NCBI GenBank assembly: GCA_964598995.1
Contig: CAZRDR010000021.1
Coordinates: 537 to 64,536, forward strand
From: an uncultured Gammaproteobacteria bacterium
GTDB taxonomy: Bacteria > Patescibacteriota > Microgenomatia > Levybacterales > UBA12049
Direction of reading: 5' to 3'
DNA: 64,000 nt
A model generated the notes under the pieces. It was not told where the DNA came from. It worked only from the letters and a program-made list of their open reading frames with translations, and made no database searches. Below are positions 4,088 through 43,280 of the stretch, one piece after another. The position numbers were made by a program, and so were the translations under genes. The number at the start of each line of letters is the position of its first letter. Positions within the stretch are counted from its first letter, which is position 1.

Positions 4088-7000
4088 CTACTCAGGCTTA
4101 TCTAATGGTATTGCTACTGCTTGCTCTTCAGTTTGAGATTTAGCGCAATTAGCTACATTCACGAGCGACTCTGGTTCGTTCGCTCCAGATAGCGTCGCGA
4201 GAGCCATCACAGCTGCTTCTTTTTTCGCTTTGAGATAACCAAGTACTTCATCATGGGAGAAGCCACCCAAAAGTAAGAAAGGTAGGATATCACCAACTAA
4301 CTTCATACCTTGCGTGATATTCTCTTCGGATTCTGATGTGAGGAGATTAATCACATTTTCTGTCTCTGACTTCTCCTCAGTAACCCATTCTTCTCTACTT
4401 TGTTCTTTATTTTCGCGAGTTTTTGGTACATCACCCTTGATAAATCGTTCATAAAACATCTTCTTGATCGCCTCATAGTCATCAAGGGATACTTTCTGCA
4501 CGTTATTCTGCTTAGGTAGTCGAGCCGGCTTAACTTTATGCTGTTGTTTTGCAAGCCTATCGTTAACAAGTTTTACCAGAACCTTAGCAAATGGATCGCC
4601 TTTCTTTTCGAGTTGTTGATAGATAGTGGTTATCTCCTGTTGAGTAGTACTTGGAATAGAGATAAATTGCTGCATAATCTGCGCAGCATTTTCGTTTTGT
4701 GTGCGGTTTTCAAGTAATAACACTCGAGCTTTATTTGCTGCAACAGGAGTGATCTCCCCATGTGCTAATGAAAGCAATGTCGATGAAACATTGTCAGAAG
4801 TTTTTTCTCTTTCGAGCGTTTCTTTAAGCGTAGAATAAACTTCTCTCAACTTGTCATCAGTGATCTGCAGAGGATTATCGAGATACTGTAGAAACTTCAT
4901 AGTACTCTGAGTCTGCTCAGCTGAAACTTTATCCATTACAGTCATGATTGTTGCAGCTGATTCATTGCCTGACTGACGTGACTTTACGAGTTCTTCTCGA
5001 GCAGAACGGAATTCTTGTTGAAGCGGGAGGGCAATAAGAGATGGATCAAGTACTCCCTGAAGTGTGTTCATAATTGCTGTTGGGGTATCCTCAATCAGTG
5101 GAGCCTCTGAACTTGCGGTCAAAGCCATAAGTGTTGCTGCGGATTGGTCACCTTGTGCTGTTCTCGTCTGGAGTGATTTCTTCAGGGAATTGAGTTGTGC
5201 TGACTCATCTGCAGTCAGACTCAAGTTTTGTAGAGACTTACTGAGTACCCGTGCGAGATCTCTCATACTCCCTTGCTGGCTAGACTGAGTCTCAAATGAG
5301 GCAACATCTCTAAGCGTAGGGACTGTGAGCTTAATCTGTGGAGCCGTCTGTAACGTTTGGTCAGCTTCAGATACAGTTACCTCTGCTGCCTGCATCGTCT
5401 GAGTGTTTGCAGTCTTTTGGGCAGTATTCTTCACTGAAAGAAGCGTTTGTTCATCTGACTGCTGAAGTGTCGTGAGGACACTCTTTCCAGCTTCTAATTT
5501 AGCTTTAAGATATCCAGTTATCTCCTCTTTAGAAAAGCCGCCTAAGAGAAGGAATGGTAAGATTTCACCAACTCTATCCATTCCCATTTGGACTTGGTTT
5601 GGATCACTTGAGGCTAGGAGATTAATCGTATCGCTGATATCAGTCGTCTCTTTCGTAATCCAGGCTTCACGAGTGGTATTAGCTGGTGGTTCTGCGCTCG
5701 AATAGTTATCAGACCAAAGTTTCTTTACACTTTCATAATCCTCAAGTGAAACTTGCTGAATTCGATTCTTGGTCGGAATAGTAGCTGAAGTCACACTCGC
5801 TGCTGCTGGATGAAGTTGTTTAGTAAAGGCCCTCAGGAGTGACGTCGCTAACGTATTATTAGTAGACTTTGCCTCGATAAGTTTTTTGTAGAGAGACTCA
5901 AGCCCTGCCTGTGTCTCTGGTTGAACTGAAGCCACTTCATCTTTAAGATAAATTGCTAACTCATCACCATGAGAAGCATTAGTATTGATGACTGCAATCA
6001 AGTTAACAATACTCTCCTGAGTGAGTGGAGCACGTAAAGTCTTGAGTACTAGTTGGGCTGTCGTATTTCTATCTTCACTTGCTTGGGCTACTCGCTCAAC
6101 CAACTTCTTATAATGCATTTGCTCTGATGCTGTAGATAAATTCTCAGGATTACTTAACCTCGTTAACAATGTCTCTGCGTCAGTCTGATAATTAAGCTTT
6201 AGCTTGGTAGCTTCGTTAGTAATCTCAACAGCGAGTGGGTCATTGGATCTCGTTAGTACCGCAAGCTTGTCATGCAGCTCCTGGAAATACTGAACGGTAT
6301 TTTTTTCTCCAGCAATTTCGGGAGTGACAAGAGCAAGCATGGTTGTTGCAAATTGACTACGTTCACTTTCAGACAGCTTACTTGGCAACGTCTCAAGCAA
6401 TTGTGTTGCACTCAGGATCATCGTAGCCAGCGGGTTGTTTTCACTACTTTCCTTGATAACTTCATCGCGAATCTGAACCATTCTTTCTCGCTCTTTAGTA
6501 TCGGTTATCCTTTCAGGATGAGACAGATGCTCAAGGACATTCTTAATACTGGTGATCTGTGATGACTCTTTCGTTTCTGACTTCGTCTCAAAGCGAGCAA
6601 TATCGGTAAGCTTAGGTACAGACAACTCAGTCTTTTTCAGAAGAGTTACATCAAATGGTGCATTTGGAGCAGCTGTCTGATTGACTACCGTATTCGTTTC
6701 ATCATTATTTGTCGTATTCGTAGTTGAGTAATTGTAGTTATTTACCACTGTCGTTGGCGCGCTAATTGAAGTATCTTTCTCATCGATTTCAGCTGAAGCT
6801 GCCAAGTGTTTTGTCTCAGTCTTTACTGCCTGCTTCGTTTCAACAAGAGTATCTTCTTCATCTTGCTGAGTTGTCGTATCCTCAAGAACGTTCTTGCCTG
6901 CTTCTATTTTAGCTTTGAGATAGGCGATCATCTCAGTCTGTGAGAACCCGCCGATGAGTAGGAATGGTAAGATATCTGAGACCTGCTGCATTCCTTGTTC

Positions 7001-9385
7001 AACTTCTTGGGGATTACTCGATGAGAGTAAATTCACTGTCTCTTGGATACTTGCGATGTCACTCTGGATCCATTCTTTACGACCTGATTGGCCGACAGGG
7101 ACTTCAACATTTTTATAATTTTCTTTCCACATCTTCTTAACCGCTTCATAATCCTCCAGGGACACCTGCTGGATACGGTTAACCTGAGGCAGAGTACCTG
7201 ATTTCAATTTGGCTGTGGCAGAGACAGGAGCAACTGCAGCTTTTTGTGATGTCAGCGTCTTTAACAGGAGCGTTGCGAGTGGATCGCCTTTTTTACTTGC
7301 TTCCTCAAGTGTCGTATGAAGTTGCTCCATGTCTTTCTCTGTTGTCTTATCAGAGGTAGAGACTGTCTTGAGAAGCTCTGCAGCTAATGGATTACCCTGT
7401 GCTTTGGCCTCAAGTAGCTGATCCTGGATCTTTCTAACCTGTTCAGGACTTGAAGCGTTATCGAGATTTTGGGCAAGCATCGTTGCTAACGGATTACCTG
7501 ATTTACTCGCAGCCATAATCTTCTCGCGAAGTGTCGTGTAGTTAGCCTTTTCACTTGTATTGGTTACTTTCTCTGGGTGCGAAATTCCCTGTAGAAGCTG
7601 CTGGAGGTTCGTTACTTGGTTAGTCGTGTAGTTATTAACATTATTAAGAATAGTCGTCGCGAACTGATTGCCTTCCTTTGCGGCTTTACCCAACTCTTGT
7701 TTGATCTCAACTATTTTCTGCTGGTCACGCTTAGAGGTGATGAGTGTCGGCTGCGCTAAGTGCTGTACGAGACTCTGCATCTGCTGGGAGACTGAAGAAG
7801 CCGATGACTGCGATGAGTAACTCGTATAGGTCGTGGCTGCATTAAGTATGTTCGTCGCGACAGAATTGCCTTTCTGACTCTCAGTCACTAACTTTTCTTT
7901 GATAACGCGCAGACGATCTCGCTCGGTGCTTGAGGCGACTGTGGTTGGATTCGCGATATTGATAAGAGTCTGCTTCATGCGCTCAATCTCACGCTGTGAG
8001 TTAACGTCATGACTCAGACGAGTCGACTCATAGCGAGCGATATCACGCATCGTCGGAATTGAAAGATTGGTCAGACGTGAAATTTCTGTCTGGTTATTGC
8101 GAGTTACGAGCGTTGGGCGTTCTACCGTTCGGCTGGCTGTAGTAGGAATATCTCTCGCAAGTCCCGTCGTCTTAGGGATTTCAAACCGCTTCGCAAATGG
8201 AAGAGCCCTTGCCAGTCCAGTCGTAGCTGGTGGAGGAGTTCCTGGAGGGAGCGGCGTAAGAGGAGCTACAGGTCTATTATTAAGCATCGTATAGACCTGT
8301 TTGATCAGAGGGTTATTCTGATAATTAAAGGCCATCATGTAGTCTAAAAAGATCTGCAGCAGAATAAATGGCAAAATAATCACCGTCCAGAGCATCAGGA
8401 GCGCAACTAGGTAGAGAGCGAAAGTATCAGGCAAATTCACACTATTATTAAGACCGATGTTCTGACCTGGGCCACCGAGTAAGATGTTAATAGCGGTCGG
8501 GTAGACAGCATCTGCTGGATTATTTACTCCTGAAAAATTAAAAATGAGCGGCAACCCTGAATGCCAGAGGCGAACCAGACCAGATAAAAATACAGCAAAG
8601 AGAGGCGCATAAAGTAACCATCTGAAGAATTCCCCCACCCAAATTTTGGCAGTATTTCGCAGTGGGTAAAACAAGAGAAGTAGTGGGAAGATGGGCGAGA
8701 CGATGATCAAGAACCACAGGATGATTTTACGGAAAATCAGGAGGATGACCATCGCATAATAGGTAAAGGCTGTAAGTTTTACTAGCAGTAATGAGATAAA
8801 GGCAGACTCATCAAAAGATTGGCCGAAAACCCGCAGTCCCTGAAACGACTGGTAATTAAAGCCAACATATAAAAGATCTTTTTGGGAAATAATTTGTCCG
8901 GCCTGGTTACGCAGGAAAAATCCTTGGAAGATATCAATAATTTGATAGAGAAACTGCACCAGCGAGAATGAAAAAGTCACAAGTAATACCACGAGGAAAA
9001 ATCGCGGCAGGAAGCGTTTGGCAGATAGACTTCTGCCTCGCGTTATGATCAAGATAAATGCTGTAACTAAAATAACGAAGAGAAAAAGTGCATAGACTAT
9101 TCGCTGAATCGTCTGCCAGAGTGGAACAAGCGGATTGTTACTATACGCACTATCTGATGCCCATTTATAGTCTCTTAGCGTCCAGTCCAGTAACTGACCA
9201 GAACGAGCAGCATTTTTACCAATAGTCGTAACCTCAGGGTCTTTAATCCATGAGCCCTCTTGAGGCAAATCTTGAGCTTGGACAGTATCGACCGCTGTAG
9301 TGTCAGCAGCGTGAATAATAGCTGTCGATAGCGGGCTGAGTAAAATCCCTAATACCAATAAAATCGAAACTAAATATTTTTTCAT
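4088..9385 (-). CDS. Giant (1765 aa) secreted/polytopic membrane protein: signal peptide + ~6 TM VirB6/TrbL-like N-terminal domain (aa ~1-375) followed by a ~1400-aa hydrophilic region built from three long tandem repeats
   Basis: A single 5.3-kb ORF. The N-terminus is MKKYLVSILLVLGILLSPLSTAIIHA, a signal peptide, followed by multiple long hydrophobic helices (IVYALFLFVILVTAFILII, FLVVLLVTFSFSLVQFLYQII, FISLLLVKLTAFTYYAMVILLIF, ILWFLIIVSPIFPLLLLFYPL, FALYLVALLMLWTVIILPFILLQIF). Next comes a Pro-rich linker (PVAPLTPLPPGTPPPATTG). The rest is three repeats, each beginning (I/V)P(T/K)(M/L)(R/T)D(I/V)A(R/S)(Y/F)E and ending RIQQVSLEDYEAVKKMW...ILPFLL(I/L)GGFS...YLKAK(I/L)EAGK. Its start codon overlaps the stop of the upstream pilin-like gene (TAATG). 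Confidence 0.8.
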   Translation of the reverse strand: MKKYLVSILLVLGILLSPLSTAIIHAADTTAVDTVQAQDLPQEGSWIKDPEVTTIGKNAARSGQLLDWTLRDYKWASDSAYSNNPLVPLWQTIQRIVYALFLFVILVTAFILIITRGRSLSAKRFLPRFFLVVLLVTFSFSLVQFLYQIIDIFQGFFLRNQAGQIISQKDLLYVGFNYQSFQGLRVFGQSFDESAFISLLLVKLTAFTYYAMVILLIFRKIILWFLIIVSPIFPLLLLFYPLRNTAKIWVGEFFRWLLYAPLFAVFLSGLVRLWHSGLPLIFNFSGVNNPADAVYPTAINILLGGPGQNIGLNNSVNLPDTFALYLVALLMLWTVIILPFILLQIFLDYMMAFNYQNNPLIKQVYTMLNNRPVAPLTPLPPGTPPPATTGLARALPFAKRFEIPKTTGLARDIPTTASRTVERPTLVTRNNQTEISRLTNLSIPTMRDIARYESTRLSHDVNSQREIERMKQTLINIANPTTVASSTERDRLRVIKEKLVTESQKGNSVATNILNAATTYTSYSSQSSASSVSQQMQSLVQHLAQPTLITSKRDQQKIVEIKQELGKAAKEGNQFATTILNNVNNYTTNQVTNLQQLLQGISHPEKVTNTSEKANYTTLREKIMAASKSGNPLATMLAQNLDNASSPEQVRKIQDQLLEAKAQGNPLAAELLKTVSTSDKTTEKDMEQLHTTLEEASKKGDPLATLLLKTLTSQKAAVAPVSATAKLKSGTLPQVNRIQQVSLEDYEAVKKMWKENYKNVEVPVGQSGRKEWIQSDIASIQETVNLLSSSNPQEVEQGMQQVSDILPFLLIGGFSQTEMIAYLKAKIEAGKNVLEDTTTQQDEEDTLVETKQAVKTETKHLAASAEIDEKDTSISAPTTVVNNYNYSTTNTTNNDETNTVVNQTAAPNAPFDVTLLKKTELSVPKLTDIARFETKSETKESSQITSIKNVLEHLSHPERITDTKERERMVQIRDEVIKESSENNPLATMILSATQLLETLPSKLSESERSQFATTMLALVTPEIAGEKNTVQYFQELHDKLAVLTRSNDPLAVEITNEATKLKLNYQTDAETLLTRLSNPENLSTASEQMHYKKLVERVAQASEDRNTTAQLVLKTLRAPLTQESIVNLIAVINTNASHGDELAIYLKDEVASVQPETQAGLESLYKKLIEAKSTNNTLATSLLRAFTKQLHPAAASVTSATIPTKNRIQQVSLEDYESVKKLWSDNYSSAEPPANTTREAWITKETTDISDTINLLASSDPNQVQMGMDRVGEILPFLLLGGFSKEEITGYLKAKLEAGKSVLTTLQQSDEQTLLSVKNTAQKTANTQTMQAAEVTVSEADQTLQTAPQIKLTVPTLRDVASFETQSSQQGSMRDLARVLSKSLQNLSLTADESAQLNSLKKSLQTRTAQGDQSAATLMALTASSEAPLIEDTPTAIMNTLQGVLDPSLIALPLQQEFRSAREELVKSRQSGNESAATIMTVMDKVSAEQTQSTMKFLQYLDNPLQITDDKLREVYSTLKETLEREKTSDNVSSTLLSLAHGEITPVAANKARVLLLENRTQNENAAQIMQQFISIPSTTQQEITTIYQQLEKKGDPFAKVLVKLVNDRLAKQQHKVKPARLPKQNNVQKVSLDDYEAIKKMFYERFIKGDVPKTRENKEQSREEWVTEEKSETENVINLLTSESEENITQGMKLVGDILPFLLLGGFSHDEVLGYLKAKKEAAVMALATLSGANEPESLVNVANCAKSQTEEQAVAIPLDKPE

Positions 9386-9798
9386 TAATGACTAACTCCT
9401 GGCAGCTGCAAAATGTCTACCAAGAAGACTTCGATGAATATAAAGCCGAAAATCGCGAGGAGCAGTCCTAAAACTGCATAAAAAATATAACTTTTACCGA
9501 CATTTACTTTTTCTGGTTTACCTTCTGACGTAAGGAGTGTATAGCCGCCGATAATGATAAAGACTAAGGCAACACCGCCGATAAGTCCCAGCCCAATACC
9601 ATAAAAACTCGTGACGAACTGGATAGGATCTGTAGGCAAACACCCAACTTCAGTCATCGCCTGATCTGAGGGACAACTCGGAGTTGGAGTAGGGACATCT
9701 GCAGCATAGGTAAGCTGAGAGGTAAGTACTAATAAGCAGAATGTTACAAGCACAAGGCTTGTGACCATTCGAATGATGTGGGCAGACATCTTTTTCAT
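9385..9798 (-). CDS. VirB2/TrbC-like pilin candidate (137 aa): long signal peptide, two Cys, two hydrophobic helices separated by a short charged loop
   Basis: MKKMSAHIIRMVTSLVLVTFCLLVLTSQLTYA|ADVP looks like a signal peptide with an A-x-A-type cleavage site. The mature part has hydrophobic helix 1 FYGIGLGLIGGVALVFIIIGGYTLL, a loop TSEGKPEKVNVGKS, and helix 2 YIFYAVLGLLLAIFGFIFIEVFLV. This is the classic T4SS VirB2/TrbC pilin topology. It is translationally coupled to the giant VirB6-like gene. Confidence 0.5.
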   Translation of the reverse strand: MKKMSAHIIRMVTSLVLVTFCLLVLTSQLTYAADVPTPTPSCPSDQAMTEVGCLPTDPIQFVTSFYGIGLGLIGGVALVFIIIGGYTLLTSEGKPEKVNVGKSYIFYAVLGLLLAIFGFIFIEVFLVDILQLPGVSH

Positions 9799-14843: not shown

Positions 14844-15188
14844 ATGCGAAAAAATAAAAAAAGAAACATTATTTACCTTATCAGTAGTATTGTCTCACTC
14901 GTCAGTCTTCTGCTGATCATTTTTTTTCTGCCGCCATTTACCACACTCCAACTCTTATTCCTTATCATCCAGCCGGTCATGCTCCTCTTTCTTCCGCTCA
15001 TCGTACTTCTTTTTAGTTTACCAGCATTTATCTTTAAGACTCGAAAGCATGGCATCTTCCTTAGTATTTTTGTCGTTACGTATCTGTTATTCCGTCTCAA
15101 CGGCCTCACGCATCCGATCTTCTTAGTTCTTCTCGTAGGACTCCTCTTGATGCTTGAGTTCCTGTTCAGCAACCGCCAGCCTCAATAA
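14844..15188 (+). CDS. Small hydrophobic membrane protein (114 aa), hypothetical
   Basis: The ORF is almost entirely hydrophobic (LLLIIFFLPPFTTLQLLFLIIQPVMLLFLPLIVLLFSL...). The competing antisense ORF at 14873..15172 is K/R-rich low complexity and less plausible. Confidence 0.3.
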   Translation: MRKNKKRNIIYLISSIVSLVSLLLIIFFLPPFTTLQLLFLIIQPVMLLFLPLIVLLFSLPAFIFKTRKHGIFLSIFVVTYLLFRLNGLTHPIFLVLLVGLLLMLEFLFSNRQPQ

Positions 15189-16784: not shown

Positions 16785-17591
16785 ATGATCGATGTTCACT
16801 GTCATCTTAATTTTCATAGCTTTGAAAAAGACTATGATGAAGTAATCAAGAGTGCGCTTAGTAAAGGTGTTACGCGTATCATTAATACCGGTACCAAACA
16901 TGACTCCAGTCAATGGGCCGTCGATCTAGCTAAAAAGTACGATGAGTTATACGCAATCGTCGGAGTTCACCCACATCACGCGGATAAAGTCGAGTTGGGA
17001 GAAAACTGGATTGAAGAATTAGAAAAAATCGCTCTTCAGGATAAAGTCGTAGGAATTGGCGAGATAGGCCTAGATTATTTTAGCTATCAGTCAAATGGCG
17101 TTGTTGATCCTACATTACAAAAAGAAGTATTTGACGCACAGATAGAGCTAGCACATAAGCTTCACCTACCTCTCCAAATTCATAACCGCTTAGCTGGCGA
17201 GGATGTAATCGCGATGCTGAAAGAGCGTAAGCATCTCCTTGAGGCAGTTCCAGGCATGTTCCATTGTTTTGCAGGTTCTAAAGAGGTCCTCAAAGACGCT
17301 TTAGATATGGGCTTTTTTATTGGGTTTGATGGGAACAGTACCTATCCAGGTCTCGCTCCTAAAGAGACGGTAGAACTGCGAGAGCTAATGCAGCTTACCC
17401 CTCTTGAGCGTATTGTAACCGAGACAGATAGTCCTTATCTCACTCCTGTCCCGCATCGAGGAAAACGTAATATGCCTGAGTATGTTATCTTAGTTGGCAA
17501 GTTCGTAAGCGAGATTAAAGGTGTCTCTTACGATCAAATTGTGGAACAAACGACCAAAAACGTCTATACTATCTTTACTCGGATGAAATAA
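16785..17591 (+). CDS. tatD: TatD-family metal-dependent DNase/hydrolase
   Basis: It begins MIDVHCHLNF and has the later conserved motifs GEIGLDY and FDG of the TatD family. It is 268 aa. Confidence 0.85.
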   Translation: MIDVHCHLNFHSFEKDYDEVIKSALSKGVTRIINTGTKHDSSQWAVDLAKKYDELYAIVGVHPHHADKVELGENWIEELEKIALQDKVVGIGEIGLDYFSYQSNGVVDPTLQKEVFDAQIELAHKLHLPLQIHNRLAGEDVIAMLKERKHLLEAVPGMFHCFAGSKEVLKDALDMGFFIGFDGNSTYPGLAPKETVELRELMQLTPLERIVTETDSPYLTPVPHRGKRNMPEYVILVGKFVSEIKGVSYDQIVEQTTKNVYTIFTRMK

Positions 17592-17600
17592 AGCCGTATC

Positions 17601-19112
17601 GTGCTGCCTATACCCACTATGACAGATCATTTTGATAGATTATTTACCCGCTACCCCATCAAGACCAAGCGTTTTTTAGAACTCATGCCTGGACTTCTCT
17701 CCTGGACTGTCATCCTCTCACCTATCTGGGCCTCACTCTTAGCACCTACGCTCCTTGCCTACTTCATCCTCTTTTTTGATACCTATTGGTTCTACAAATC
17801 ATACTCGCTCGTCATTAATGCCTATCGCGGTGCAAAACGCATCAAGCAAGCAGAAAGAGCTAACTGGCTCGAGAAAGCTAAAAAGTATGACGACTATCGC
17901 AAGGTTCAGCATATTTTGATCATCCCAAGCTACAAAGAAAGTGTGGCAAAGATGCGAACGACCATCGAGAACCTCTCACGCCAAACACTTCCCTTAGACC
18001 AACTTCATGTCGTCCTGGCTATGGAAGAACGCGAAACTGAAGCTCCAGAAAAAGTCAAAGAAATTACTAATGAATTCAAAGGCAAATTCGGCAGCCTTTT
18101 TGCAACGTACCACGTTGATGCGCCTGGGGAGATTAAAGGAAAATCCTCTAACGAAGCCTTTGCCGGCAAAGCTGCCTACCAAAAACTTATTATTGAGGAA
18201 AAACTCGACATCGACTACGTCACGATCTCCAGCGTCGACGTTGATTCTATCTTTGATAAACAGTTCTTCGCCTACCTCACCTATGCATTCTTAAGTGATG
18301 AAAAGCGCTATAACAAATTCTGGCAGTCTGCCACAGTTTTTTATAACAATATTTGGCAAGTACCAGCCCCAATTCGTATCCTCTCATTCTTCGGCAGTCT
18401 TTGGAGGACTTCTATGCTGGTTCAGGGAGATCGTCTAATTACTCAATCCACCTACTCGCTCTCACTTAAACTCTTGCGAGATATTGGCTTCTGGGATGTT
18501 GATGTCATTCCTGAGGACTACCGCGTCTTCTTCAAAGCTTTCTTTAAGATGAAAGGTCAGGTCTGGACTGAGCCGATTTTCCTTAAGACCTCCATGGATG
18601 CAGCTTTCTCGCACGGTTATGTCAATAGTCTGAAGAATAAATACCATCAAGAGCGCAGATGGTCATGGGGAGTCTCAGATGACCCACTCTTCCTTAAATG
18701 GTGGTTCACCGTCCCAGGTGTTCCTTTTATGCGAAAAACGATTATGGTTTATCATGTCGTTCTCGATCATTTCCTCTGGCCGGTTAACTGGTTCGTCGTA
18801 ACGATTGCAGCCAACGTCATGCCTTTTGTAAATCCTGTTTTCTCACGAACTGAACTTGGCTATATCTTACCTCGTGTTGCAGGATCGATCTTAACCTCAA
18901 CGATCTTAGCTATTTTTGCCCTGATGTTCATCGACTATAAGAATCGTCCTGAGAATACGACACTCTCTCTTCGCCGTAAGATATTCTTCCCTTTTGAATT
19001 TATTCTGATGCCTATCGTTGGATTTTTCCTTTCAGCGCTTCCTGCTTTGATATCTCATACGCAACTTATGTTAGGTAAGCGTATGGAGTACAAAGTAACT
19101 GATAAAGCATGA
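17601..19112 (+). CDS. Membrane-embedded processive family-2 glycosyltransferase (cellulose/chitin/hyaluronan-synthase-like)
   Basis: N-terminal TM helices, then the GT-A motifs IIPSYKE, SVDVDS (DxD) and QERRWSWG (a QxxRW-type processivity motif), and several C-terminal TM helices. Confidence 0.65.
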   Translation: MLPIPTMTDHFDRLFTRYPIKTKRFLELMPGLLSWTVILSPIWASLLAPTLLAYFILFFDTYWFYKSYSLVINAYRGAKRIKQAERANWLEKAKKYDDYRKVQHILIIPSYKESVAKMRTTIENLSRQTLPLDQLHVVLAMEERETEAPEKVKEITNEFKGKFGSLFATYHVDAPGEIKGKSSNEAFAGKAAYQKLIIEEKLDIDYVTISSVDVDSIFDKQFFAYLTYAFLSDEKRYNKFWQSATVFYNNIWQVPAPIRILSFFGSLWRTSMLVQGDRLITQSTYSLSLKLLRDIGFWDVDVIPEDYRVFFKAFFKMKGQVWTEPIFLKTSMDAAFSHGYVNSLKNKYHQERRWSWGVSDDPLFLKWWFTVPGVPFMRKTIMVYHVVLDHFLWPVNWFVVTIAANVMPFVNPVFSRTELGYILPRVAGSILTSTILAIFALMFIDYKNRPENTTLSLRRKIFFPFEFILMPIVGFFLSALPALISHTQLMLGKRMEYKVTDKA

Positions 19113-20614
19113 AAGAACATATCAAACGACTTGAGAGGTCACATGAATTCTGGACTGTTATTGGTCTAGGTGTTGTCTTCTTTCTTCTCCGCCTTCCTTC
19201 TCTGTTCGAGCCATACTGGTATGGAGACGAAGGAATATACCAGACACTCGGACTTGCCATAACAAAAGGCCGCATACTCTACACAGGTATTTGGGATAAC
19301 AAACCTCCATTGCTCTACTATACGTATGCCCTCGTTCACAGCAGTCAGTTCGCCATTCGCTCCCTTTCACTCCTCGTCGGACTAGGAGCAATCGCATTAC
19401 TTTTTCTTTTAGCTAAAAAATTATTTAATGATCGGAAGAGTGCGCTTATTGCAACTGGCGTCTTTGTACTTTCTTTTGGCCTCCCGACATTCGAGGGTAA
19501 TATCGCAAATGCTGAGAACTTCATGCTGCTCCCCATTATCGCTGCAGGGTATGTAATCTACAGTCTGGTAACAAAGAACAGAGACTTCACATCAACCACA
19601 TCTTTGAAATTAGTTTCAGTAGCAGGTCTACTCCTAGGCTTTGCGTTCCTCTATAAAATAGTCGCTATCTTTGATTTTGCTGCTTTTTTTGTTTTTTTGA
19701 TTATCAGCACTTATCGCGAGAGATTTACCCGTGAGCAGATATTCTCCTATCTAAACAACGTTTGGAAACTCTTTGGGGTATTCATCGTTGGCTTTATCTT
19801 TCCTTTCTTTCTGACTATTCTCTATTTCGCTCTAAACCACGCGTTAGGGGAGTATATTCGCGCAACTTTCTTAAGTACCGTCGGCTATGTCGGATATAAA
19901 AATGCCTTTATCATCCCGCAAGGCTTACTCATCTCTAAAGTTATTATTCTTGCCATCTTTTGTCTGATACTCTTTATCAAAAGACAGAAGACCTCATCAA
20001 CTACACTATTTATTAGTCTTTGGGTTGCCTTCTCATTGTTTAATAGTTTCTTCTCTCAGCGTCCCTACACCCATTACGTATTAGTGCTCGTTCCTGCTTT
20101 TTCATTACTCGTTGGCAAAACATTTTTGGAAAGAAAATCTCAGCTAGTTAAATATGCAGTTATTACACTTATCGTCGGGTATCTGGGTATTCATTATTTC
20201 GATCACTGGAACATCAGCAAAACGATCCATTACTATACTAACTTTACGAGCTTTACGAGTGGAAACAAATCAGTGAACGCGTATGACACCTTCTTTGATA
20301 GAAGAACTATCCGTGACTATGAAATTATTTCGTATCTCAACCAACATAAACAAAAAGATTCTACACTCTATGTCTGGGGTAATGATGCTCAGATTTATCC
20401 TCTGACTGGTACTATCCCTCCGGGAAGATTTACTGTCGCGTATCACGTTGCAGGCAATCATAAGTATGAAAAGGAAATAGGAGACATCCTGAAGAACAAT
20501 CCTCCCCATTTTCTTGTGATCATGCGCGATGTGCCAGTTTATCCATTCCCGATGTATAATTACCGACAAGTACTAAGCGTACAGAATGCTGATATCTATG
20601 AACGGAACAATTAA
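19109..20614 (+). CDS. GT-C fold polytopic glycosyltransferase (ArnT/PMT, GT39/GT83-like), polyprenyl-phosphate-sugar dependent
   Basis: It has 10+ TM helices. The first extracytoplasmic loop contains YWYGDEGIY, the DE/DD motif typical of ArnT/PMT-like GT-C enzymes. Its start overlaps the GT2 stop (ATGA). Confidence 0.6.
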   Translation: MKEHIKRLERSHEFWTVIGLGVVFFLLRLPSLFEPYWYGDEGIYQTLGLAITKGRILYTGIWDNKPPLLYYTYALVHSSQFAIRSLSLLVGLGAIALLFLLAKKLFNDRKSALIATGVFVLSFGLPTFEGNIANAENFMLLPIIAAGYVIYSLVTKNRDFTSTTSLKLVSVAGLLLGFAFLYKIVAIFDFAAFFVFLIISTYRERFTREQIFSYLNNVWKLFGVFIVGFIFPFFLTILYFALNHALGEYIRATFLSTVGYVGYKNAFIIPQGLLISKVIILAIFCLILFIKRQKTSSTTLFISLWVAFSLFNSFFSQRPYTHYVLVLVPAFSLLVGKTFLERKSQLVKYAVITLIVGYLGIHYFDHWNISKTIHYYTNFTSFTSGNKSVNAYDTFFDRRTIRDYEIISYLNQHKQKDSTLYVWGNDAQIYPLTGTIPPGRFTVAYHVAGNHKYEKEIGDILKNNPPHFLVIMRDVPVYPFPMYNYRQVLSVQNADIYERNN

Positions 20615-20951
20615 ATTTCTCTCATCTGATCGAACAATCTGGCTCTGTATTATTTGCTCTCTGATATTCATCTTACTTAGTCTTTTTTTTACGGGACTTT
20701 TTTATCATAACCTCCCTCCGCTCATTCCAATTTTCAATCAACTGCCATGGGGAACAGATCGCTTGATGAGTAAACTTGGACTCCTTATTCCTATCGCAGT
20801 TTGTCTTGGGATTCTTGTTATCAACGCATTTACGACTCGATATATCTATGAAAAAATGCCAATCACAGCAAGGATGCTCAACATCACGACATTCCTTATC
20901 ACTCTTCTTACCTTAATTTTTGTCTTTCGAACGATTCAATTGATTTTATAA
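20586..20951 (+). CDS. Small 3-4 TM membrane protein (GtrA/ArnE-like flippase candidate), hypothetical
   Basis: 121 aa, hydrophobic, overlapping the 3' end of the GT-C gene. Its size and topology resemble the small flippase subunits that accompany GT2/GT-C pairs. Confidence 0.3.
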   Translation: MLISMNGTIKFLSSDRTIWLCIICSLIFILLSLFFTGLFYHNLPPLIPIFNQLPWGTDRLMSKLGLLIPIAVCLGILVINAFTTRYIYEKMPITARMLNITTFLITLLTLIFVFRTIQLIL

Positions 20952-20952
20952 T

Positions 20953-22023
20953 ATGATTTTTTCTATCATGCTACCGCCGTTATTATTAGCTTTTGTGGTG
21001 ACTGTTGTTGCTACGTATCTTTTATTACCACTCATCACAAAATTAGGTCTCGTTGATGATCCTAAAAAGCATATTCATCCAGCAATTCTTCATTCTAAAG
21101 TTATCCCTCGCGGTGGGGGTATCCCTCTTTTTATAGGCATTCTGCTGGCAAGTCTCATTTTTATTCCTATTAATTCTGTAACAATTGCCATTTTTTTCGC
21201 GGCACTATTAGCGCTTGTGATTGGCATCATCGACGATAAATTTAACGCGATCTCAAAAGACGTCTCACCTTATCTCCGCTTTCTCGTTAATATTCTGTGC
21301 GCTGTTATCGTCGTCGGTTCAGGAGTGACAATCCCTTTTATTACTAATCCTTTAGGAGGGATCATTAATCTAGGACATAATGTTTTACCATTCCTTCCGA
21401 TTACTTTTGGCGATATTATCACTGGTATGTGGATTATCTGGGTGATGACGATGCTTAACTGGAGTAAAGGAGTGGATGGCCAGATGCCGGGAATAGTTGC
21501 TATCTCTGCACTCGTTATTGGTGTACTTAGTTTACGTTTTCCATTTCTAGATAGCACCAGTCTTATCGACGCTAAACTCTCCTTTATCATTACGGGAGCT
21601 GCACTTGGCTTTTTACTCTTCAATTTTTATCCAGCCAAAATATTTCCTGGCTATGGGGCAACGAGTATGTATCTTCTTCTAGCGGTCGTGTCTATCCTCT
21701 CAAGTGCTAAATTAGCCACAGCAATTCTGGTGATGGGTGTACCAACAGTCGATGCTGTTTTTACTATCCTAAGACGACTCCTTGAGGGAAGATCACCCTT
21801 CTGGGGAGATAAAAAACACCTTCATCACCTTCTCCTTAGGCTTGGCTATAGCCAACGGCAAATCGCGTTGTTTTATTGGGCAATCTCTGCTATAGTGGGC
21901 ACAATTGCTCTTACCGTACACAGCGAAAGTAAACCTTTTGCTCTCCTTCTTTTATTTGCTCTAGCTGGAGGCGGACTACTTTTTTTACATTTATTAATGC
22001 GCAATGAAAAAGACAGTTCGTAA
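20953..22023 (+). CDS. MraY/WecA-family (GT4) polyprenyl-phosphate N-acetylhexosamine-1-phosphate transferase
   Basis: 10-11 TM helices. The IIDDKFN Asp-Asp motif sits in the first cytoplasmic loop, with a later NWSKGVDGQ segment in the position of the MraY/WecA DG(L)DGLA motif. It is 356 aa. Confidence 0.6.
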   Translation: MIFSIMLPPLLLAFVVTVVATYLLLPLITKLGLVDDPKKHIHPAILHSKVIPRGGGIPLFIGILLASLIFIPINSVTIAIFFAALLALVIGIIDDKFNAISKDVSPYLRFLVNILCAVIVVGSGVTIPFITNPLGGIINLGHNVLPFLPITFGDIITGMWIIWVMTMLNWSKGVDGQMPGIVAISALVIGVLSLRFPFLDSTSLIDAKLSFIITGAALGFLLFNFYPAKIFPGYGATSMYLLLAVVSILSSAKLATAILVMGVPTVDAVFTILRRLLEGRSPFWGDKKHLHHLLLRLGYSQRQIALFYWAISAIVGTIALTVHSESKPFALLLLFALAGGGLLFLHLLMRNEKDSS

Positions 22024-22951
22024 TTATCTACGTCTACTCAGACCTCGCCAGTGGTCTAAAAATTTCGCGATCTTTGCTGCGATCACTTTCGGCGGGCAGC
22101 TCTTAGTTTGGAACAGCCTAGTTACAGTTGTATTTGGCTTTCTTATCTTTTGTTCACTTTCAAGTGCTATCTACGTTATCAATGATATTTTTGATATTAA
22201 TAAAGACCGGCTGCATCCTTTTAAAAAATTCCGCCCAATTCCCAATGGTGATATCCCAATCCCGACTGCAATCGTGATCGCAATCATCCTTGCATCAGTT
22301 GCTATCATCGGGAGTTCATTTATCTCCCCAGCTTTTTTCCTTTTGACGCTTTCCTATATGCTTCTCCAGATTCTTTATTCAGTTGTAATGAAAAATATCG
22401 CAGTCATTGATATTCTCGCACTTGCGGCAGGATATATCTTGCGAGTATACGCAGGCGAATTTTTAAGCGGTTATCATATCTCTGTCTGGCTTTTACTGAC
22501 TACTATTTCGCTTTCTCTCTTCTTAGCTATTGGAAAAAGACGTCGAGAATTAACATTAGTATCAGAAGATAGTACTAAAAATATTGCACTTATCAGGAAA
22601 ACACTCTCCCACTATTCAGAGAGACTTCTTGATGTTTATACCTCCATCTTTGCAACCTCAACGTTCATCTCTTATTCTCTTTTCACTTTTTTGGAGAACT
22701 CACATCGATATACTATTACTAATGATCTCCTCTTCCCAGATTTCTTACCAACATCACTCAATCAGAGAAAATGGTTAATGCTTACGATTATCCCAGTCGT
22801 CTATGGGCTGATGCGCTATATGCAGGATATTTATGAGAAACACGAAGGCGAAAGTCCAGAGAAAGTACTTTTTTCGGATAAACCACTGCTGGCTACCATC
22901 ATGATCTGGGCGATCATGGTTTTCGTTATTATCTACATCGTCCAGGGGTGA
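22004..22951 (+). CDS. UbiA-superfamily prenyltransferase, decaprenyl-phosphate phosphoribosyltransferase (DPPR synthase)-like subfamily
   Basis: YVINDIFDINKDRLHPFKKFRPIPNG contains the NDxxDxxxD first Asp-rich motif followed by HPxK(R/K)FRPI. From memory this is characteristic of the Rv3806c-type 5-phosphoribosyl transferase subfamily. It has 8-9 TM helices and is 315 aa. Confidence 0.6.
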   Translation: MKKTVRNYLRLLRPRQWSKNFAIFAAITFGGQLLVWNSLVTVVFGFLIFCSLSSAIYVINDIFDINKDRLHPFKKFRPIPNGDIPIPTAIVIAIILASVAIIGSSFISPAFFLLTLSYMLLQILYSVVMKNIAVIDILALAAGYILRVYAGEFLSGYHISVWLLLTTISLSLFLAIGKRRRELTLVSEDSTKNIALIRKTLSHYSERLLDVYTSIFATSTFISYSLFTFLENSHRYTITNDLLFPDFLPTSLNQRKWLMLTIIPVVYGLMRYMQDIYEKHEGESPEKVLFSDKPLLATIMIWAIMVFVIIYIVQG

Positions 22952-23803
22952 TTATTGTTTTTGGGCGTACTGACTGCTTATCCACCCGACTGTCCCATCA
23001 GTGAGTTTTATCTGATACCATCCATCAGCTTCCGTAACAAGGTCAAATGACTGACCTGGCAGGACTTGGCCAACCGCTGCAGCTGCAACACTTGCACTAG
23101 CCCTTACTCGTAAGAAACCTGTTGGTGTCTGGAGAATCGTTACCTTACTCTTAACTGGAGTCGGCGTTGCTGAAGGAGAAGCTGATTTAGTCGGCGTAGG
23201 CGTCGTCTGAGCTCCACTCTCATCATCAACACCTAAATAAACTGAGGCAATAAGCTTATAACCACTTGGTGTACGTATTCTCACTTTTTTATCAGCATAG
23301 CCTGCTTTTTTCAGCGTTAGCTCATGATCCGAATCAGTAATATTCTTAATTAGAAGCGGTGAGTAACCAGAGGAATTATTATCGAGTAACACCTCGACAG
23401 TATCAGGAATAGACGTAATCAAAAGTTGTCTATCATTACCATTTTTTAATGGCTCAAGCGTAATAATACTGCCTTCACTCGCTGCTCCGGCACCGAATTT
23501 TCGATCAACGACTGTGAGAATTGACTTAGAGATACTGATCTTTTCCTGGAACTCACTATAGTTGCCGCTATTAGGGACAACGCGAATTGTATAATCACCT
23601 GTTCCGATCATGTCATTAGTGTTACATTTACACAGAGGTGTTTGGCCGAGATATTTCCCATTCAAATAGACTTTACTCTGCGGCGCAGCAGTTACTTGCA
23701 ACGCACCTTTATCATTTCCCCGAAGGAGAATTGACTGCACCAGGAGAAAAACAATAGCTGCAAAGATGAAAGATGGAATGAGGATTAAAAGAGCTTTCTT
23801 CAT
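22952..23803 (-). CDS. Membrane-anchored PEGA-domain protein with T/P/S-rich linker and C-terminal SH3b-like domain
   Basis: An N-terminal TM anchor is followed by two PEGA-like beta-sandwich repeats (SKVYLNGKYLGQTPL, VEVLLDNNSSGYSPLLIKNITDSDHELTLKKAGY), a TPTPTKSASPSATPTP linker, and a C-terminal GWYQIKLTDGTVGWISSQY segment typical of SH3b. Confidence 0.5.
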   Translation of the reverse strand: MKKALLILIPSFIFAAIVFLLVQSILLRGNDKGALQVTAAPQSKVYLNGKYLGQTPLCKCNTNDMIGTGDYTIRVVPNSGNYSEFQEKISISKSILTVVDRKFGAGAASEGSIITLEPLKNGNDRQLLITSIPDTVEVLLDNNSSGYSPLLIKNITDSDHELTLKKAGYADKKVRIRTPSGYKLIASVYLGVDDESGAQTTPTPTKSASPSATPTPVKSKVTILQTPTGFLRVRASASVAAAAVGQVLPGQSFDLVTEADGWYQIKLTDGTVGWISSQYAQKQ

Positions 23804-23851: not shown

Positions 23852-26038
23852 TTATGAGGCTGGTTGTACACCCAGGATCTCGACAGTTCCACCGCAGTAT
23901 TTGGTGATAATCTCACAGGTCTCACGTAACACTTTTTCAACCTGAGCAGGTGTAATATCAAAAACTCCATCGACGTTAATCAGCACATTTTTAGTTGTGA
24001 GACTAACAGCTGTCCGCAGACTATCACGATAATTAAGGTCAAGATTATACGGACCTTTTTGATCAAAATAAGCAAGCTCACCATCTTTACAGGTTGTTTT
24101 TTCGTCATCACCTAATAGAAGGATCGAATCAGTTGAGGTTGCGAGACAGAGCTCAGTCGGCAAAGCTATCTCATCCAAATCAAACGCTCCAACCGAGACA
24201 TGATGCTTCATAACAACCAGGTTATATGCATCAACAAGAGTATTAACAGTGTACAAACCTTTTTTTAAGGCAACTCGTCTTAAAAGAGCCTCAGGACTTG
24301 GTCTGCGCGAATGCCAATCAATTCCCATATCCTTATAGAGTTTTCTATAACTCACAATTTCAGGGAATGATCCGATCTGTTCTGTAGTAAGAGTCTCAAA
24401 CGAACTGAGTAATTCCTTTTTTGCTACTTCTAATTCCTTATCTTCTGTCTTAATAGTCACATTTTTAATAATCGCAACTCCAGTTGAGAGGGAAGGAAAT
24501 TTTTCAGCAGCAGCTGAATTAATAGAAAAAATCTCAGGCTTATTAAGTACTGTCAGTTCTTTTTCTTCGTTACGTGCTCCTGTTTGAGGTTTGTTCTCGA
24601 CTTTTAGCGTTGGGAAAAGAACAACTTCTTTAACTGCCCAGGTATTCGTCAAAAACATTGTTAAGCGGTCGATCCCGATACCAATGCCACCTGTTGGTGG
24701 CATACCGTATTCCATCGCCAGTAAGAAATCTTGATCAATCTGCTGGGCTTCCTCGCGGTCTTTGCGAGTTGCGTTGGTATCTTTGGTAAAGCGTTCGCGC
24801 TGGACTTGTGGATCAGTCAGCTCTGACCAGCCGTCAAAAATTTCTTTTCCGCCGACATATCCCTCAAATCGCTCAACCCAGCCTGGTTTGGAACGGTGAG
24901 GTTTGGAAAGTGGACTGATATCTTCTGGATAATCGATGATCCAGGTTGGTTCTTTGAGGGTTTTCGGGATAATATGATCAAAAATCATAAATATCAGCTG
25001 ACCTTTAGTCTCTCCACCTAAGATTTCCATCTGAGGACAGTGCTCTTTCGCAAATGCCAAAAGTGATTCAACTGTCGCTGTCTCAACATCAAGCCCCAGT
25101 CGTTCCTTCAGGATCGTTGCCATCTCAATTCGAGGCCATTTATTACCGATATCTATTGTCTGGTCATCTACTTGTAATTTGGTATCACCGTAAATTTTAG
25201 TTGCCAAATGCTTGAGTAGTCCCTCAGCAACATCCATGACCCGGTTATAGTCAGCATATGCTTCATACCACTCAATCATCGTAAATTCAGGGAAATGTGT
25301 CTGGTCAATACCTTCGTTACGAAAATCTTTACAGATTTCATAAACTCGTTCATAACCGCCGACTATCAGGCGTTTGAGATAAAGCTCATCTGCGATACGT
25401 AAGAATACATCTTGATCAAGAGCATTAAGGTGGGTTTTAAAGGGTTTGGCATTCGCACCGCCATAAAGCGGCTGAAGAGTTGGAGTCTCGACTTCCCAGA
25501 ATCCAAGTCCATCGAGGTACTCTCTAACTCCTCGGACGACTTTAGTACGCACATTAAAGCGTTCACGAACATCAGGGTTAAGTAGAAGATCCAAATAACG
25601 CTGTCGATAGCGAGTCTCAACGTCTTTGACGCCAAACCATGTACTCGGCAGAGTCCGCATCGCTTTAGTAAGAAGGGTATATTCAGTAGGTGCGACTGAG
25701 GTCTCACCAGCAATTGTCTTGACGACTTCACCTTTCACACCAATGATGTCACCAAGATCTAAGAGCTTAAGATTTTTAAAAGCCTCTGCCCCAAGGAGAT
25801 CTTTTTTGAAGAAAAGCTGGATTTTACCTGTCTCATCCTGTAAATCGGCGAAAGCGATATTCCCATGCTCTCGGAAAGACATGAGCTTGCCGGCTGTACT
25901 GACAGTCTCACCCATACTAGACAACGCGTCCTTGACCATGTGAGTCTTTGGATACGACGCAGCATAAGGATTCCAGCCTAGGGCTTTAATTTTCTCTAGT
26001 TTTTCTTTACGAACTTTTATTAATTCTGAATCATCCAT
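23852..26038 (-). CDS. lysS: Class II lysyl-tRNA synthetase with ~230-aa C-terminal B3/4-like (PheT editing-domain-like) extension
   Basis: An N-terminal OB anticodon-binding domain is followed by a class II core (motif 2 FRNEGIDQTHFPEFTMIEWY, motif 3 GIGIGIDRLTMFLT). After about residue 490 there is an extra domain containing LVDAYNLVVMKHHVSVGAFDLDEIA...LGDDEKTTCKDGELAYFD, which matches B3/4-domain hallmarks (AxN..s...g.p.hafDld). Confidence 0.85.
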   Translation of the reverse strand: MDDSELIKVRKEKLEKIKALGWNPYAASYPKTHMVKDALSSMGETVSTAGKLMSFREHGNIAFADLQDETGKIQLFFKKDLLGAEAFKNLKLLDLGDIIGVKGEVVKTIAGETSVAPTEYTLLTKAMRTLPSTWFGVKDVETRYRQRYLDLLLNPDVRERFNVRTKVVRGVREYLDGLGFWEVETPTLQPLYGGANAKPFKTHLNALDQDVFLRIADELYLKRLIVGGYERVYEICKDFRNEGIDQTHFPEFTMIEWYEAYADYNRVMDVAEGLLKHLATKIYGDTKLQVDDQTIDIGNKWPRIEMATILKERLGLDVETATVESLLAFAKEHCPQMEILGGETKGQLIFMIFDHIIPKTLKEPTWIIDYPEDISPLSKPHRSKPGWVERFEGYVGGKEIFDGWSELTDPQVQRERFTKDTNATRKDREEAQQIDQDFLLAMEYGMPPTGGIGIGIDRLTMFLTNTWAVKEVVLFPTLKVENKPQTGARNEEKELTVLNKPEIFSINSAAAEKFPSLSTGVAIIKNVTIKTEDKELEVAKKELLSSFETLTTEQIGSFPEIVSYRKLYKDMGIDWHSRRPSPEALLRRVALKKGLYTVNTLVDAYNLVVMKHHVSVGAFDLDEIALPTELCLATSTDSILLLGDDEKTTCKDGELAYFDQKGPYNLDLNYRDSLRTAVSLTTKNVLINVDGVFDITPAQVEKVLRETCEIITKYCGGTVEILGVQPAS

Positions 26039-40114: not shown

Positions 40115-40897
40115 TTAACTACTAGCGCTGCTATACCGCTTCAACGCCCCTCTCCACGCGTAAAGACTTAACGCTAAAAGCCCTATACTAAAGCCAAAGG
40201 CTATCATGACTCCAGATGGTGTAAGTATTCCTAAAATCGCGTGAGTTGGTAATGTAATCATCGCGGCAACTGGAAGAATAAAAGTAAAGACGAGAGTTAG
40301 CGGTTTGGGATAAATCTGTAAAGGCAGTCTGCCTAACTGGGTTAATTCACGAAACATCCAGATGGCATTATCGACTTCAGTTGTGACGATGCCTAATGCT
40401 AATACCAAAATATGCATGGACATCGCTGTCACTAACCCATTAATAACCATCAAAATATAAAGAATAATCTCTCCAAGTGTTATATGTCCTATGTGCGAAA
40501 TGACATAACCGATAAATATCCCTAAAGGCACCAATGTAATTAGATCTAAGATATCACTCCCCCCGAAAAGAGAACGAAGTAAAGGAGATAATGGTTTGGT
40601 CAGAACCATATCAAAATTACCTGAGACGATATAACTTCTAAAACGATATACATCCCGCCATAAAAACTGCGAAATAATATCGATAAGATTAAAGGTAAGG
40701 AAAAACATCATTACCTGCCACAGACTAAATCCCGCAATTAATTTCGTTCTAGAAATAAGAAGATACAGAAAGACAATAAAGAATATAAAACGAATTATTT
40801 TCCCTAGCGTAAATAAGACGACGCCAAGTCGAGAAGCAAAAGCGATCTGTGTTAGCTGGGTGGTTACTTTGAACCAAAGATAAAGATATTTTTTCAT
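40115..40897 (-). CDS. ABC-2 family transporter permease (DUF990/COG4587-3694-like), type 'SASS' C-terminus, copy 2
   Basis: It has 6 TM helices, a conserved LTKPLSPL loop and a C-terminal WRGALKRYSSASS. It is paralogous to 41690..42478. Confidence 0.55.
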   Translation of the reverse strand: MKKYLYLWFKVTTQLTQIAFASRLGVVLFTLGKIIRFIFFIVFLYLLISRTKLIAGFSLWQVMMFFLTFNLIDIISQFLWRDVYRFRSYIVSGNFDMVLTKPLSPLLRSLFGGSDILDLITLVPLGIFIGYVISHIGHITLGEIILYILMVINGLVTAMSMHILVLALGIVTTEVDNAIWMFRELTQLGRLPLQIYPKPLTLVFTFILPVAAMITLPTHAILGILTPSGVMIAFGFSIGLLALSLYAWRGALKRYSSASS

Positions 40898-42478: not shown

Positions 42479-42479
42479 C

Positions 42480-43275: not shown

Positions 43276-43280
43276 AGATG

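Follow-up and report, generated by a model that had tools for sequence, protein, structure and literature searches.

Does a tightly packed cluster of five genes in a member of the Candidate Phyla Radiation (CPR, or Patescibacteria) encode a pathway that places a pentose on the outside of the cell? The genes, referred to here as g1 to g5, are read from the plus strand at positions 17601-22951 of a 64,000-nucleotide stretch of contig CAZRDR010000021.1 (the window). The envelope chemistry of CPR bacteria is almost entirely unknown, and very few members have been cultivated. A preliminary description of the DNA had recognized in the cluster a processive glycosyltransferase of family 2 (GT2), a glycosyltransferase of the GT-C class, a small membrane protein, an MraY/WecA-like initiator and a UbiA-superfamily enzyme, and had suggested that the last supplies a lipid-linked pentose to the GT-C enzyme. 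We favour, with moderate confidence, the reading that the block forms an operon, native to a Levybacteria-like CPR bacterium and present lineage-wide, that most likely builds a pentofuranose-bearing envelope glycan, and the pairing of g5 with g2 at its centre is probable. The same contig is found in several public assemblies, and close relatives are labelled by their sources as Candidatus Levybacteria or Patescibacteria; exact-sequence look-up returned no source-given name for any of the g1-g5 proteins.

The phosphoribosyltransferase and the GT-C enzyme

The last gene of the cluster, g5 (22004-22951, 315 aa), is solidly assigned from its sequence as a polyprenyl-phosphate 5-phosphoribosyltransferase (PPPRS) that uses phosphoribosyl pyrophosphate (PRPP). 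It scores 216.9 bits against NF008978, the NCBIfam equivalog model for decaprenyl-phosphate 5-phosphoribosyltransferase (DPPR synthase), above the cutoff of 207, and 211.5 bits against NF008977, below the cutoff of 234. Other models of the UbiA superfamily, chlorophyll synthase included, all give 17-35 bits (heme O synthase, 34.8; UbiA, 26.3; MqnP, 17.2). The best relative of solved structure is Rv3806c of Mycobacterium tuberculosis (PDB 8j8j), matched over residues 6-306 with an E-value of 3.3e-36. In Rv3806c, N73 and D77 are Mg2+ ligands, N73 and Q135 contact the ribose, K28, Y70 and Y157 contact the 5-phosphate, and R22, K87, R90, K143, Y138 and K208 form the Lys/Arg pyrophosphate cluster; conservation of these phosphoribose sites does not extend to ordinary UbiA prenyltransferases (PMC10994848). 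At all 14 positions that handle PRPP, Mg2+ or the lipid phosphate (R22, K28, Y70, N73, D74, D77, D81, K87, R90, Q135, Y138, K143, Y157 and K208, Rv3806c numbering), g5 carries the identical residue, and 12 of the 14 are invariant among 59 g5 orthologues. The peptide quoted in the preliminary description, NDIFDINKDRLHPFKKFRPIPNG, is located in g5, and the likeness to Rv3806c claimed there is borne out by the equivalog score, the structural match and the substrate residues. A menaquinone or heme O prenyltransferase is ruled out on the same grounds together with the low scores of the corresponding models, which set g5 with the PRPP-dependent enzymes. The protein covers only the UbiA half (positions 189-382) of the 482-position NF006088 profile and carries no extra phosphatase domain.

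The second gene, g2 (19109-20614, 501 aa), encodes with confidence a GT-C enzyme of the PMT_2, GT39/GT83-like type. It exceeds the Pfam gathering scores for both PMT_2 and PMT, has a multi-helix transmembrane (TM) fold, and carries in its first outer loop, immediately after TM1, the acidic motif WYGDEG (D40-E41), which is invariant among 53 homologues. D40-E41 sit where PMT and ArnT carry their catalytic acidic motif. The prototype of family GT136 has an acidic motif at the same position as the DE pair of g2 (PMC11127046). Against the PDB, neither single-sequence nor profile searches returned anything, and only fold searches were informative. The AlphaFold model is confident (pLDDT 88, pTM 0.89), and most of the closest structures belong to users of polyprenyl- or dolichyl-monophosphate monosaccharide donors, suggesting that g2 draws on a donor of this kind on the outer face of the membrane. 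In the fold comparison, ALG3, PIG-M, ArnT and PimE score as well as or better than the PMTs, whereas AftA, AftB, AftD and Emb lie further from g2 than other GT-Cs do.

The GT-C assignment of the preliminary description thus stands, as PMT_2/PMT and not Emb/Aft. That description had also considered that g2 might be a plain ArnT with its partners encoded elsewhere. No NCBIfam equivalog, ArnT included, matches g2, and no ArnC, ArnE or ArnF gene was found when essentially every open reading frame (ORF) of at least 110 aa in the window was scanned against Pfam. The lack of an ArnT equivalog match and the structure comparison rule out an ArnT or Emb/Aft orthologue. We propose that g2 acts as an extracytoplasmic pentofuranosyltransferase; the sugar is not readable from the fold.

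Layout and conservation of the block

The five co-directional ORFs are as tightly packed as first described. Besides g2 and g5, they comprise g1 (17619-19112, 497 aa, with an alternative GTG start at 17601), g3 (20598-20951, 117 aa, with an alternative ATG at 20586) and g4 (20953-22023, 356 aa, or 351 aa from the ATG at 20968); the ATG starts at 17619 and 20598 are preferred by public gene calls and homologues. Read from the DNA, g1 and g2 share an ATGA stop/start overlap at 19109-19112, g2 and g3 overlap by 29 nt from ATG 20586 or 17 nt from ATG 20598, and g4 and g5 overlap by 20 nt, all as previously noted; the gap between g3 and g4, given before as 2 nt, is a spacer of 1 nt (TAA-T-ATG), a trivial correction. 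Because every junction is an overlap or a 1-nt spacer, translational coupling of g1 to g5 is implied.

To follow the block in other genomes, a metagenome scan with a g1 profile yielded the best 80 loci, all 61-83% identical in g1, and a genome contig scan with a single-protein query yielded 5 close loci only. In 46 of the 46 metagenomic loci that extend 4 kb or more beyond g1 on its downstream side, g2-g3-g4-g5 are contiguous in the same order and on the same strand, an arrangement far beyond chance. The block is also kept in the 5 genome loci and in 4 further contigs, and the most divergent homologues examined show it as well. Median identity to the window proteins in the 46 loci is 65% for g1, 64% for g5, 61% for g4, 45% for g2 and 38% for g3.

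The conserved block is larger than five genes. A TatD-family hydrolase gene (16785-17591, plus strand; Pfam TatD_DNase, E=2.7e-77) precedes g1 by 9-27 nt, depending on the g1 start used, and on the other side the stop codon of g5 abuts, with 0 nt between, that of a convergent gene (22952-23803, minus strand) for a membrane-anchored wall-binding protein with PEGA (E=3.9e-14) and SH3b (SH3_3, E=4.5e-11) domains. The order TatD-g1-g2-g3-g4-g5 followed by convergent PEGA/SH3 is kept in 5 species-level genomes whose g5 proteins are 53-74% identical. TatD is the immediate upstream neighbour of g1 in 53 of 55 loci, 30 of them without a MetRS gene directly upstream, and the PEGA/SH3 gene is found no more than 1.5 kb downstream of g5 in 36 of 41. 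TatD keeps its place next to g1 also in loci from which MetRS is displaced, and its co-transcription with the glycan genes is possible.

Are the five genes mere neighbours, held together by a generally conserved gene order and sharing no pathway? The flanking HrcA-GrpE-DnaK, MetRS, TatD, LysRS and MurB genes are indeed also largely syntenic in related loci. Yet the four junctions imply translational coupling, rearrangement or interruption of the flanks leaves the five genes contiguous (one locus, L012, has an extra hydrolase between g5 and PEGA), and all five products are membrane enzymes or proteins of lipid-linked glycan metabolism. We consider a fortuitous neighbourhood very improbable. The GC content of the region is uniform with the rest of the window, which argues that the block is native; a horizontally acquired island is ruled out by this uniformity and by the conserved genomic context, in which the surrounding housekeeping genes encode ClpB, DnaJ/DnaK/GrpE/HrcA, MetRS, TatD, LysRS, MurB, GreA, RecA and Obg, along with one tRNA.

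The three other membrane proteins

The first protein of the block, g1, is best described as a membrane-embedded GT2 with the motif set of hyaluronan- and cellulose-type synthases. It belongs to a large, strongly conserved family (more than 3,000 matches), some members of which carry a weak PF13632 match or are named by their sources GT2 or cellulose/PNAG-synthase-like; g1 itself has no Pfam, NCBIfam or PDB sequence match, profile search included. Its invariant motifs are D207xD209, E299-D300 and Q344ERRW348. The AlphaFold2 model is of moderate quality (pLDDT 71.5, pTM 0.74) with a confident GT-A core, which is flanked by two N-terminal and three to four C-terminal TM helices. The top Foldseek matches in the PDB are PcManGT, BcsA and viral and vertebrate hyaluronan synthases, with E-values around 2e-6 and TM-scores of 0.4-0.52, the full-length TM-score to CvHAS (9yq4) being 0.52. 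The QxxRW-type GT2 of the preliminary description is thus recovered in both fold and motif, and its label "processive" is a reasonable one: g1 would polymerize the backbone of a glycan and export it.

In a different division of labour, g1 would be an enzyme of the DPMS/GtrB/PcManGT type that loads a hexose onto polyprenyl phosphate and thereby provides the donor for g2, while g5 would feed an unlinked GT-C or serve another role. The invariant ED and QxxRW motifs and the 2+4 TM helices of g1, like those of hyaluronan synthases and without the short C-terminal anchor of the GtrB/ArnC type, speak against such a function, and g2 is the only GT-C in the window. Moreover, we know of no use for a PPPRS product except as a GT-C donor. 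This scheme therefore seems to us quite improbable.

The fourth protein, g4, belongs to the PNPT family and is WecA-like. It matches Pfam Glycos_transf_4 (PF00953) with 69.8 bits, scores 93.7 bits against the NCBIfam WecA model (cutoff 326) and 40.2 bits against MraY, both below the cutoffs, and is 27% identical to E. coli WecA. The DDxxD motif (D94, D95, D103), N169 and D175 (the second Asp of the NxxDGxDG motif, equivalent to WecA D159) are retained, and H289-L-H291-H292 (HLHH) aligns to the HIHH of WecA, so that domain, DDxxD and HxHH all place g4 among WecA-type enzymes. An MraY identity is ruled out by the two model scores and by HLHH in place of the MraY HHH/PxHHHxE motif.

The remaining protein, g3, has three predicted TM helices in its 117 aa and an invariant loop motif, LPPxxPxFNQLPWGxxRL. 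An exhaustive profile search gathered 1105 cluster representatives at E<=1e-3, all of about 117 aa and stand-alone, with no domain fusion among them that would hint at a function. No Pfam match is significant (best DUF1648, E=0.26, in a scan at E<=1), and nothing links g3 to the SMR, GtrA or MATE families. Its gene is nonetheless kept in all 46 loci, between the GT-C and PPPRS genes. In the Citrobacter pentofuranosylation system, the corresponding position is held by a small EmrE/ArnE-like flippase (PMC11127046). We consider g3 a positional candidate for a flippase by this analogy; since it is not homologous to the Citrobacter protein despite the like position, the role is a guess.

A putative pentofuranosylation pathway

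These components suggest the following route. At the cytoplasmic face, g5 would transfer phosphoribose from PRPP to polyprenyl phosphate, giving polyprenyl-phosphate-ribofuranose-5-phosphate. The 5-phosphate would then be removed by some phosphatase, for which the window has no PAP2 or HAD candidate, and the lipid-linked sugar would be flipped outward, possibly by g3. Outside the cell, g2 would move the pentofuranose onto an acceptor, most simply the glycan that g1 would polymerize and export, perhaps starting from a g4-made lipid primer. The g1/g4 part of the scheme would resemble a WecA-primed, synthase-dependent O-antigen route. In described systems, ribofuranose (Ribf) is added to glycans by a PPPRS, a small flippase and a GT-C, and xylofuranose (Xylf) or arabinofuranose (Araf) when epimerases are present (PMC11127046). 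Following this rule, ribofuranose is our default sugar, there being no epimerase gene close by; for arabinose, genes at another site in the genome would be required. The suggestion of the preliminary description that a pentose-donor pathway feeds a GT-C enzyme outside actinobacteria is therefore supported, although the concept is less novel than it implied: the pairing of PPPRS and GT-C in non-actinobacteria is already established by the Citrobacter (PMC11127046) and Pseudomonas pilin systems.

The nature of the sugar was addressed through the partner genes. The search for DprE1/DprE2-like epimerases called for in the preliminary description came back negative within the window, where the only FAD_binding_4 protein is MurB; no DprE1-type oxidase or DprE2-type reductase was found. 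Neither DprE1/DprE2, nor a PAP2/HAD phosphatase, nor a flippase was found in the annotated flanks of the related loci. A mycobacterium-like arabinofuranose route, with epimerases of the DprE1/DprE2 type and a phosphatase encoded elsewhere in the genome and g2 adding or polymerizing Araf, would draw on the close functional homology of g5 to Rv3806c and on the size of the inspected portion, 64 kb. Mycobacterial dprE1 and dprE2 are not adjacent to Rv3806c either. Weighing the other way, MurB aside, the window holds no FAD_binding_4/ALO or short-chain-dehydrogenase candidate, nor do the annotated flanks of related loci, g2 is structurally further from the Aft and Emb enzymes than from other GT-Cs, and the non-actinobacterial systems surveyed in PMC11127046 keep their epimerases in the cluster. 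We hold the arabinofuranose route to be distinctly unlikely.

One distant relative bears on how visible such partners are. On a putative viral contig (locus L098, 7965-9610 of IMGVR_UViG_3300039668_000014), a PPPRS 29% identical to g5 has a FAD_binding_4 (DprE1-like) ORF immediately downstream and a rhamnosyl O-methyltransferase-like gene nearby, indicating that DprE1-type partners are detectable when present. The contig echoes the phage-borne pentofuranosylation system mentioned in PMC11127046.

The acceptor could also be a protein. In such a scheme the PMT-like g2 would place the pentofuranose on Ser/Thr-rich surface proteins (the PEGA/SH3 protein or pilins), by analogy with the TfpW arabinosylation of Pseudomonas pilin or with PMT mannosylation, and g1 and g4 would make a separate glycan. 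The PEGA/SH3 protein, a possible acceptor or associated envelope protein, has a linker rich in Ser, Thr and Pro at about aa 190-220 whose composition, but not sequence, is kept in 43 orthologues. Linkers of this kind are common in extracellular proteins, though, and are not specific evidence; ALG3, PIG-M, ArnT and PimE, which act on glycan or lipid acceptors, match g2 at least as well as the PMTs; and a tight operon with a synthase-type GT2 and a PNPT would more naturally make a shared glycan product. We regard protein O-glycosylation as possible but unlikely, and retain a pentofuranose-bearing glycan as the favoured product.

Several observations weigh against this favoured reading, the first of which concerns g4. 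Lysine (K172) stands in place of the active-site aspartate WecA D156 (D193 in MraY of Aquifex aeolicus, AaMraY), and it does so in 60 of 62 orthologues; tyrosine (Y234) stands in place of the aspartate of FMGDxGS (AaMraY D265, E. coli MraY D267), the 62 orthologues having 58 Tyr, 3 Phe and 1 Trp. Neither of the two aspartates, WecA D156 and MraY D265, is therefore present in g4. In AaMraY, D265 is an essential Mg2+-coordinating residue (PMC5039524, PMC6606608), and in WecA, replacement of the active-site residue D156 abolishes function (PMC5843353). By contrast, the equivalents of the MraY uracil pocket, formed by G194, L195, D196 and F262 (PMC6606608), are kept as G173, V174, D175 and F231. 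It seems that g4 may still bind a uridine nucleotide while its metal site is remodelled, with the lysine possibly substituting for Mg2+; it may represent a metal-independent or re-purposed PNPT subfamily, or may have a different or non-catalytic role. A priming role is doubtful because the two catalytic aspartates are replaced. The "MraY/WecA-like initiator" of the preliminary description thus keeps its WecA-like family, while its standard primer-making role becomes uncertain with the non-canonical active site.

Other points fall on the remaining components. The interfacial QxxRW region of the g1 model is of low confidence, and a fold of the g1 type is also common to non-processive enzymes. 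By fold, g2 is equidistant from many GT-C families. With three TM helices, g3 lacks the four of SMR-type flippases, and its comparison with an EmrE sequence gave an hhalign probability of 0.15%. No phosphoribose 5-phosphatase of the PAP2 or HAD type and no recognizable SMR, MATE or GtrA flippase are encoded in the window, which represents about 6% of a genome of about 1 Mb, so that epimerases could be encoded elsewhere. As all related loci come from one fairly syntenic lineage, the conserved order speaks less strongly for functional coupling than the same order kept in different phyla would. Finally, donor, acceptor and product are all ones that we infer from sequence.

Among known systems, the closest is the three-component system of Citrobacter youngae O1/O2 (ORF15, PPPRS; ORF14, flippase; ORF12, GT-C of family GT136; Kelly et al., PNAS 2024, PMC11127046). 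It shares with the present block a UbiA-type PPPRS clustered with a GT-C and a membrane protein of about 110-120 aa; the absence of an epimerase there predicts Ribf, and a WecA-type enzyme initiates the acceptor glycan (PMC11127046). Unlike its Citrobacter counterpart, g5 has no fused HAD phosphatase domain, although inactivating that dedicated domain did not abolish the modification in Citrobacter (PMC11127046). The small protein g3, with 3 TM helices, is unrelated to EmrE/ArnE, and g2 is PMT_2-like; GT136 is described as closest to ArnT by sequence (PMC11127046). The backbone would be made here by a synthase-type GT2, and there by an ABC-transporter pathway. Furthermore, the Citrobacter genes form a variable serotype module, whereas in a CPR lineage the present block is kept, with strong conservation, as a core operon. 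CPR bacteria are not mentioned in PMC11127046, and we found no description of such a system in Patescibacteria in the literature.

The mycobacterial decaprenyl-phosphoryl-ribose/arabinose (DPR/DPA) pathway comprises Rv3806c, the Rv3807c phosphatase, DprE1/DprE2, Rv3789 and Emb/Aft, with an acceptor galactan built by WecA and GlfT2. Besides the Rv3806c homologue, the block would share its logic, in which a PNPT makes the primer, a GT2 polymerizes and a GT-C draws on a lipid-linked pentofuranose. It differs in that the window has no DprE1/DprE2 or PAP2 phosphatase, that the GT-C is small (501 aa), closer to ALG3/PMT/ArnT and not of Emb/Aft type, that g1 is membrane-embedded and synthase-like while GlfT2 is soluble, and that the g4 active site is altered. 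Arabinosylation of group IV pilin in Pseudomonas aeruginosa (the GT-C TfpW with PsPA7_6246-6249, homologues of PPPRS, phosphatase and DprE1-E2) is likewise a case of a non-actinobacterial PPPRS feeding a GT-C (cited in PMC11127046). There, in contrast, the acceptor is a protein, the epimerases and phosphatase are encoded alongside, and the cluster has no GT2 synthase or PNPT.

For g1 and g4, the model is the synthase-dependent O-antigen of Salmonella O:54 (WecA, WbbE and WbbF), in which a lipid primer is extended and exported by one membrane-embedded GT2 synthase; WecA primes this O-antigen. The role of WbbF is described in PMC2841628. The O:54 polymer has no lipid-linked pentose decoration, and g1 has no detectable sequence similarity to characterized synthases. 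In the ArnT/ArnC/ArnEF system, which adds aminoarabinose to lipid A, the GT-C is likewise a PMT_2-superfamily enzyme bearing a DE motif, and the undecaprenyl-phosphate-pentose donor is flipped by small membrane proteins. Its donor is made by the GT2 ArnC from UDP-Ara4FN and not by a UbiA-type enzyme from PRPP, and the window has neither an ArnT equivalog nor Arn partners. CPR bacteria are not known to possess lipid A.

That the operon is kept in a genome that has discarded most biosynthesis, with g1, g4 and g5 at about 61-65% identity across the lineage, suggests that the envelope has among its core constituents a lipid-linked pentofuranose, probably ribofuranose. From the block one may expect these uncultivated ultra-small bacteria to carry on their envelope a ribose- or arabinose-type sugar that has not been described, which is a concrete prediction for glycan analysis and a possible target for labelling or enriching these cells. 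The recently defined paradigm of pentofuranosylation would reach another superphylum, one in which the accessory parts are non-homologous, and a PNPT subfamily with a replaced Mg2+ ligand is of mechanistic interest in a family of major antibiotic targets. A more ambitious version sees in the operon all that is minimally needed to make a CPR-specific core wall polymer, a functional miniature of mycobacterial arabinogalactan in an ultra-small genome: a synthase-extruded glycan bearing, or extended by, ribofuranose, with g3 as a new family of 3-TM polyprenyl-phosphate-pentose flippases or accessory proteins, g4 as a metal-independent or re-purposed PNPT, and possibly TatD as the missing 5-phosphatase. 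We give this version low credence and offer it as a speculation.

Elsewhere in the window, a few neighbouring features were recorded. Upstream of MetRS, a multi-TM ORF of 114 aa (14844-15188, plus strand) has no Pfam match and is detectable in 27 related loci. Beyond the PEGA/SH3 gene, the LysRS gene (23852-26038, minus strand) encodes a class II enzyme (PF00152) fused to a C-terminal B3_4 domain. In two related loci (L014, 16638-18884 on the minus strand, and L015), the syntenic gene encodes a class I LysRS (PF01921) that has the B3_4 fusion as well; the fusion apparently survived a non-orthologous displacement. At 4088-9798 (minus strand), the window encodes a protein of 1765 aa that weakly matches TrbL/VirB6 and, after it, one of 137 aa resembling the pilin of type IV secretion systems (T4SS); T4SS_pilin genes also lie near HrcA in L014 and in locus L097. 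Four consecutive ABC2_membrane_6 permease genes adjoin one ABC ATPase gene at 40115-44270 (minus strand). Towards the end of the window, the genome encodes a class A beta-lactamase-family protein (60429-61361, plus strand; PF13354, E=1.6e-49) and a Phage_holin_4_2 family membrane protein (63022-63363, minus strand).

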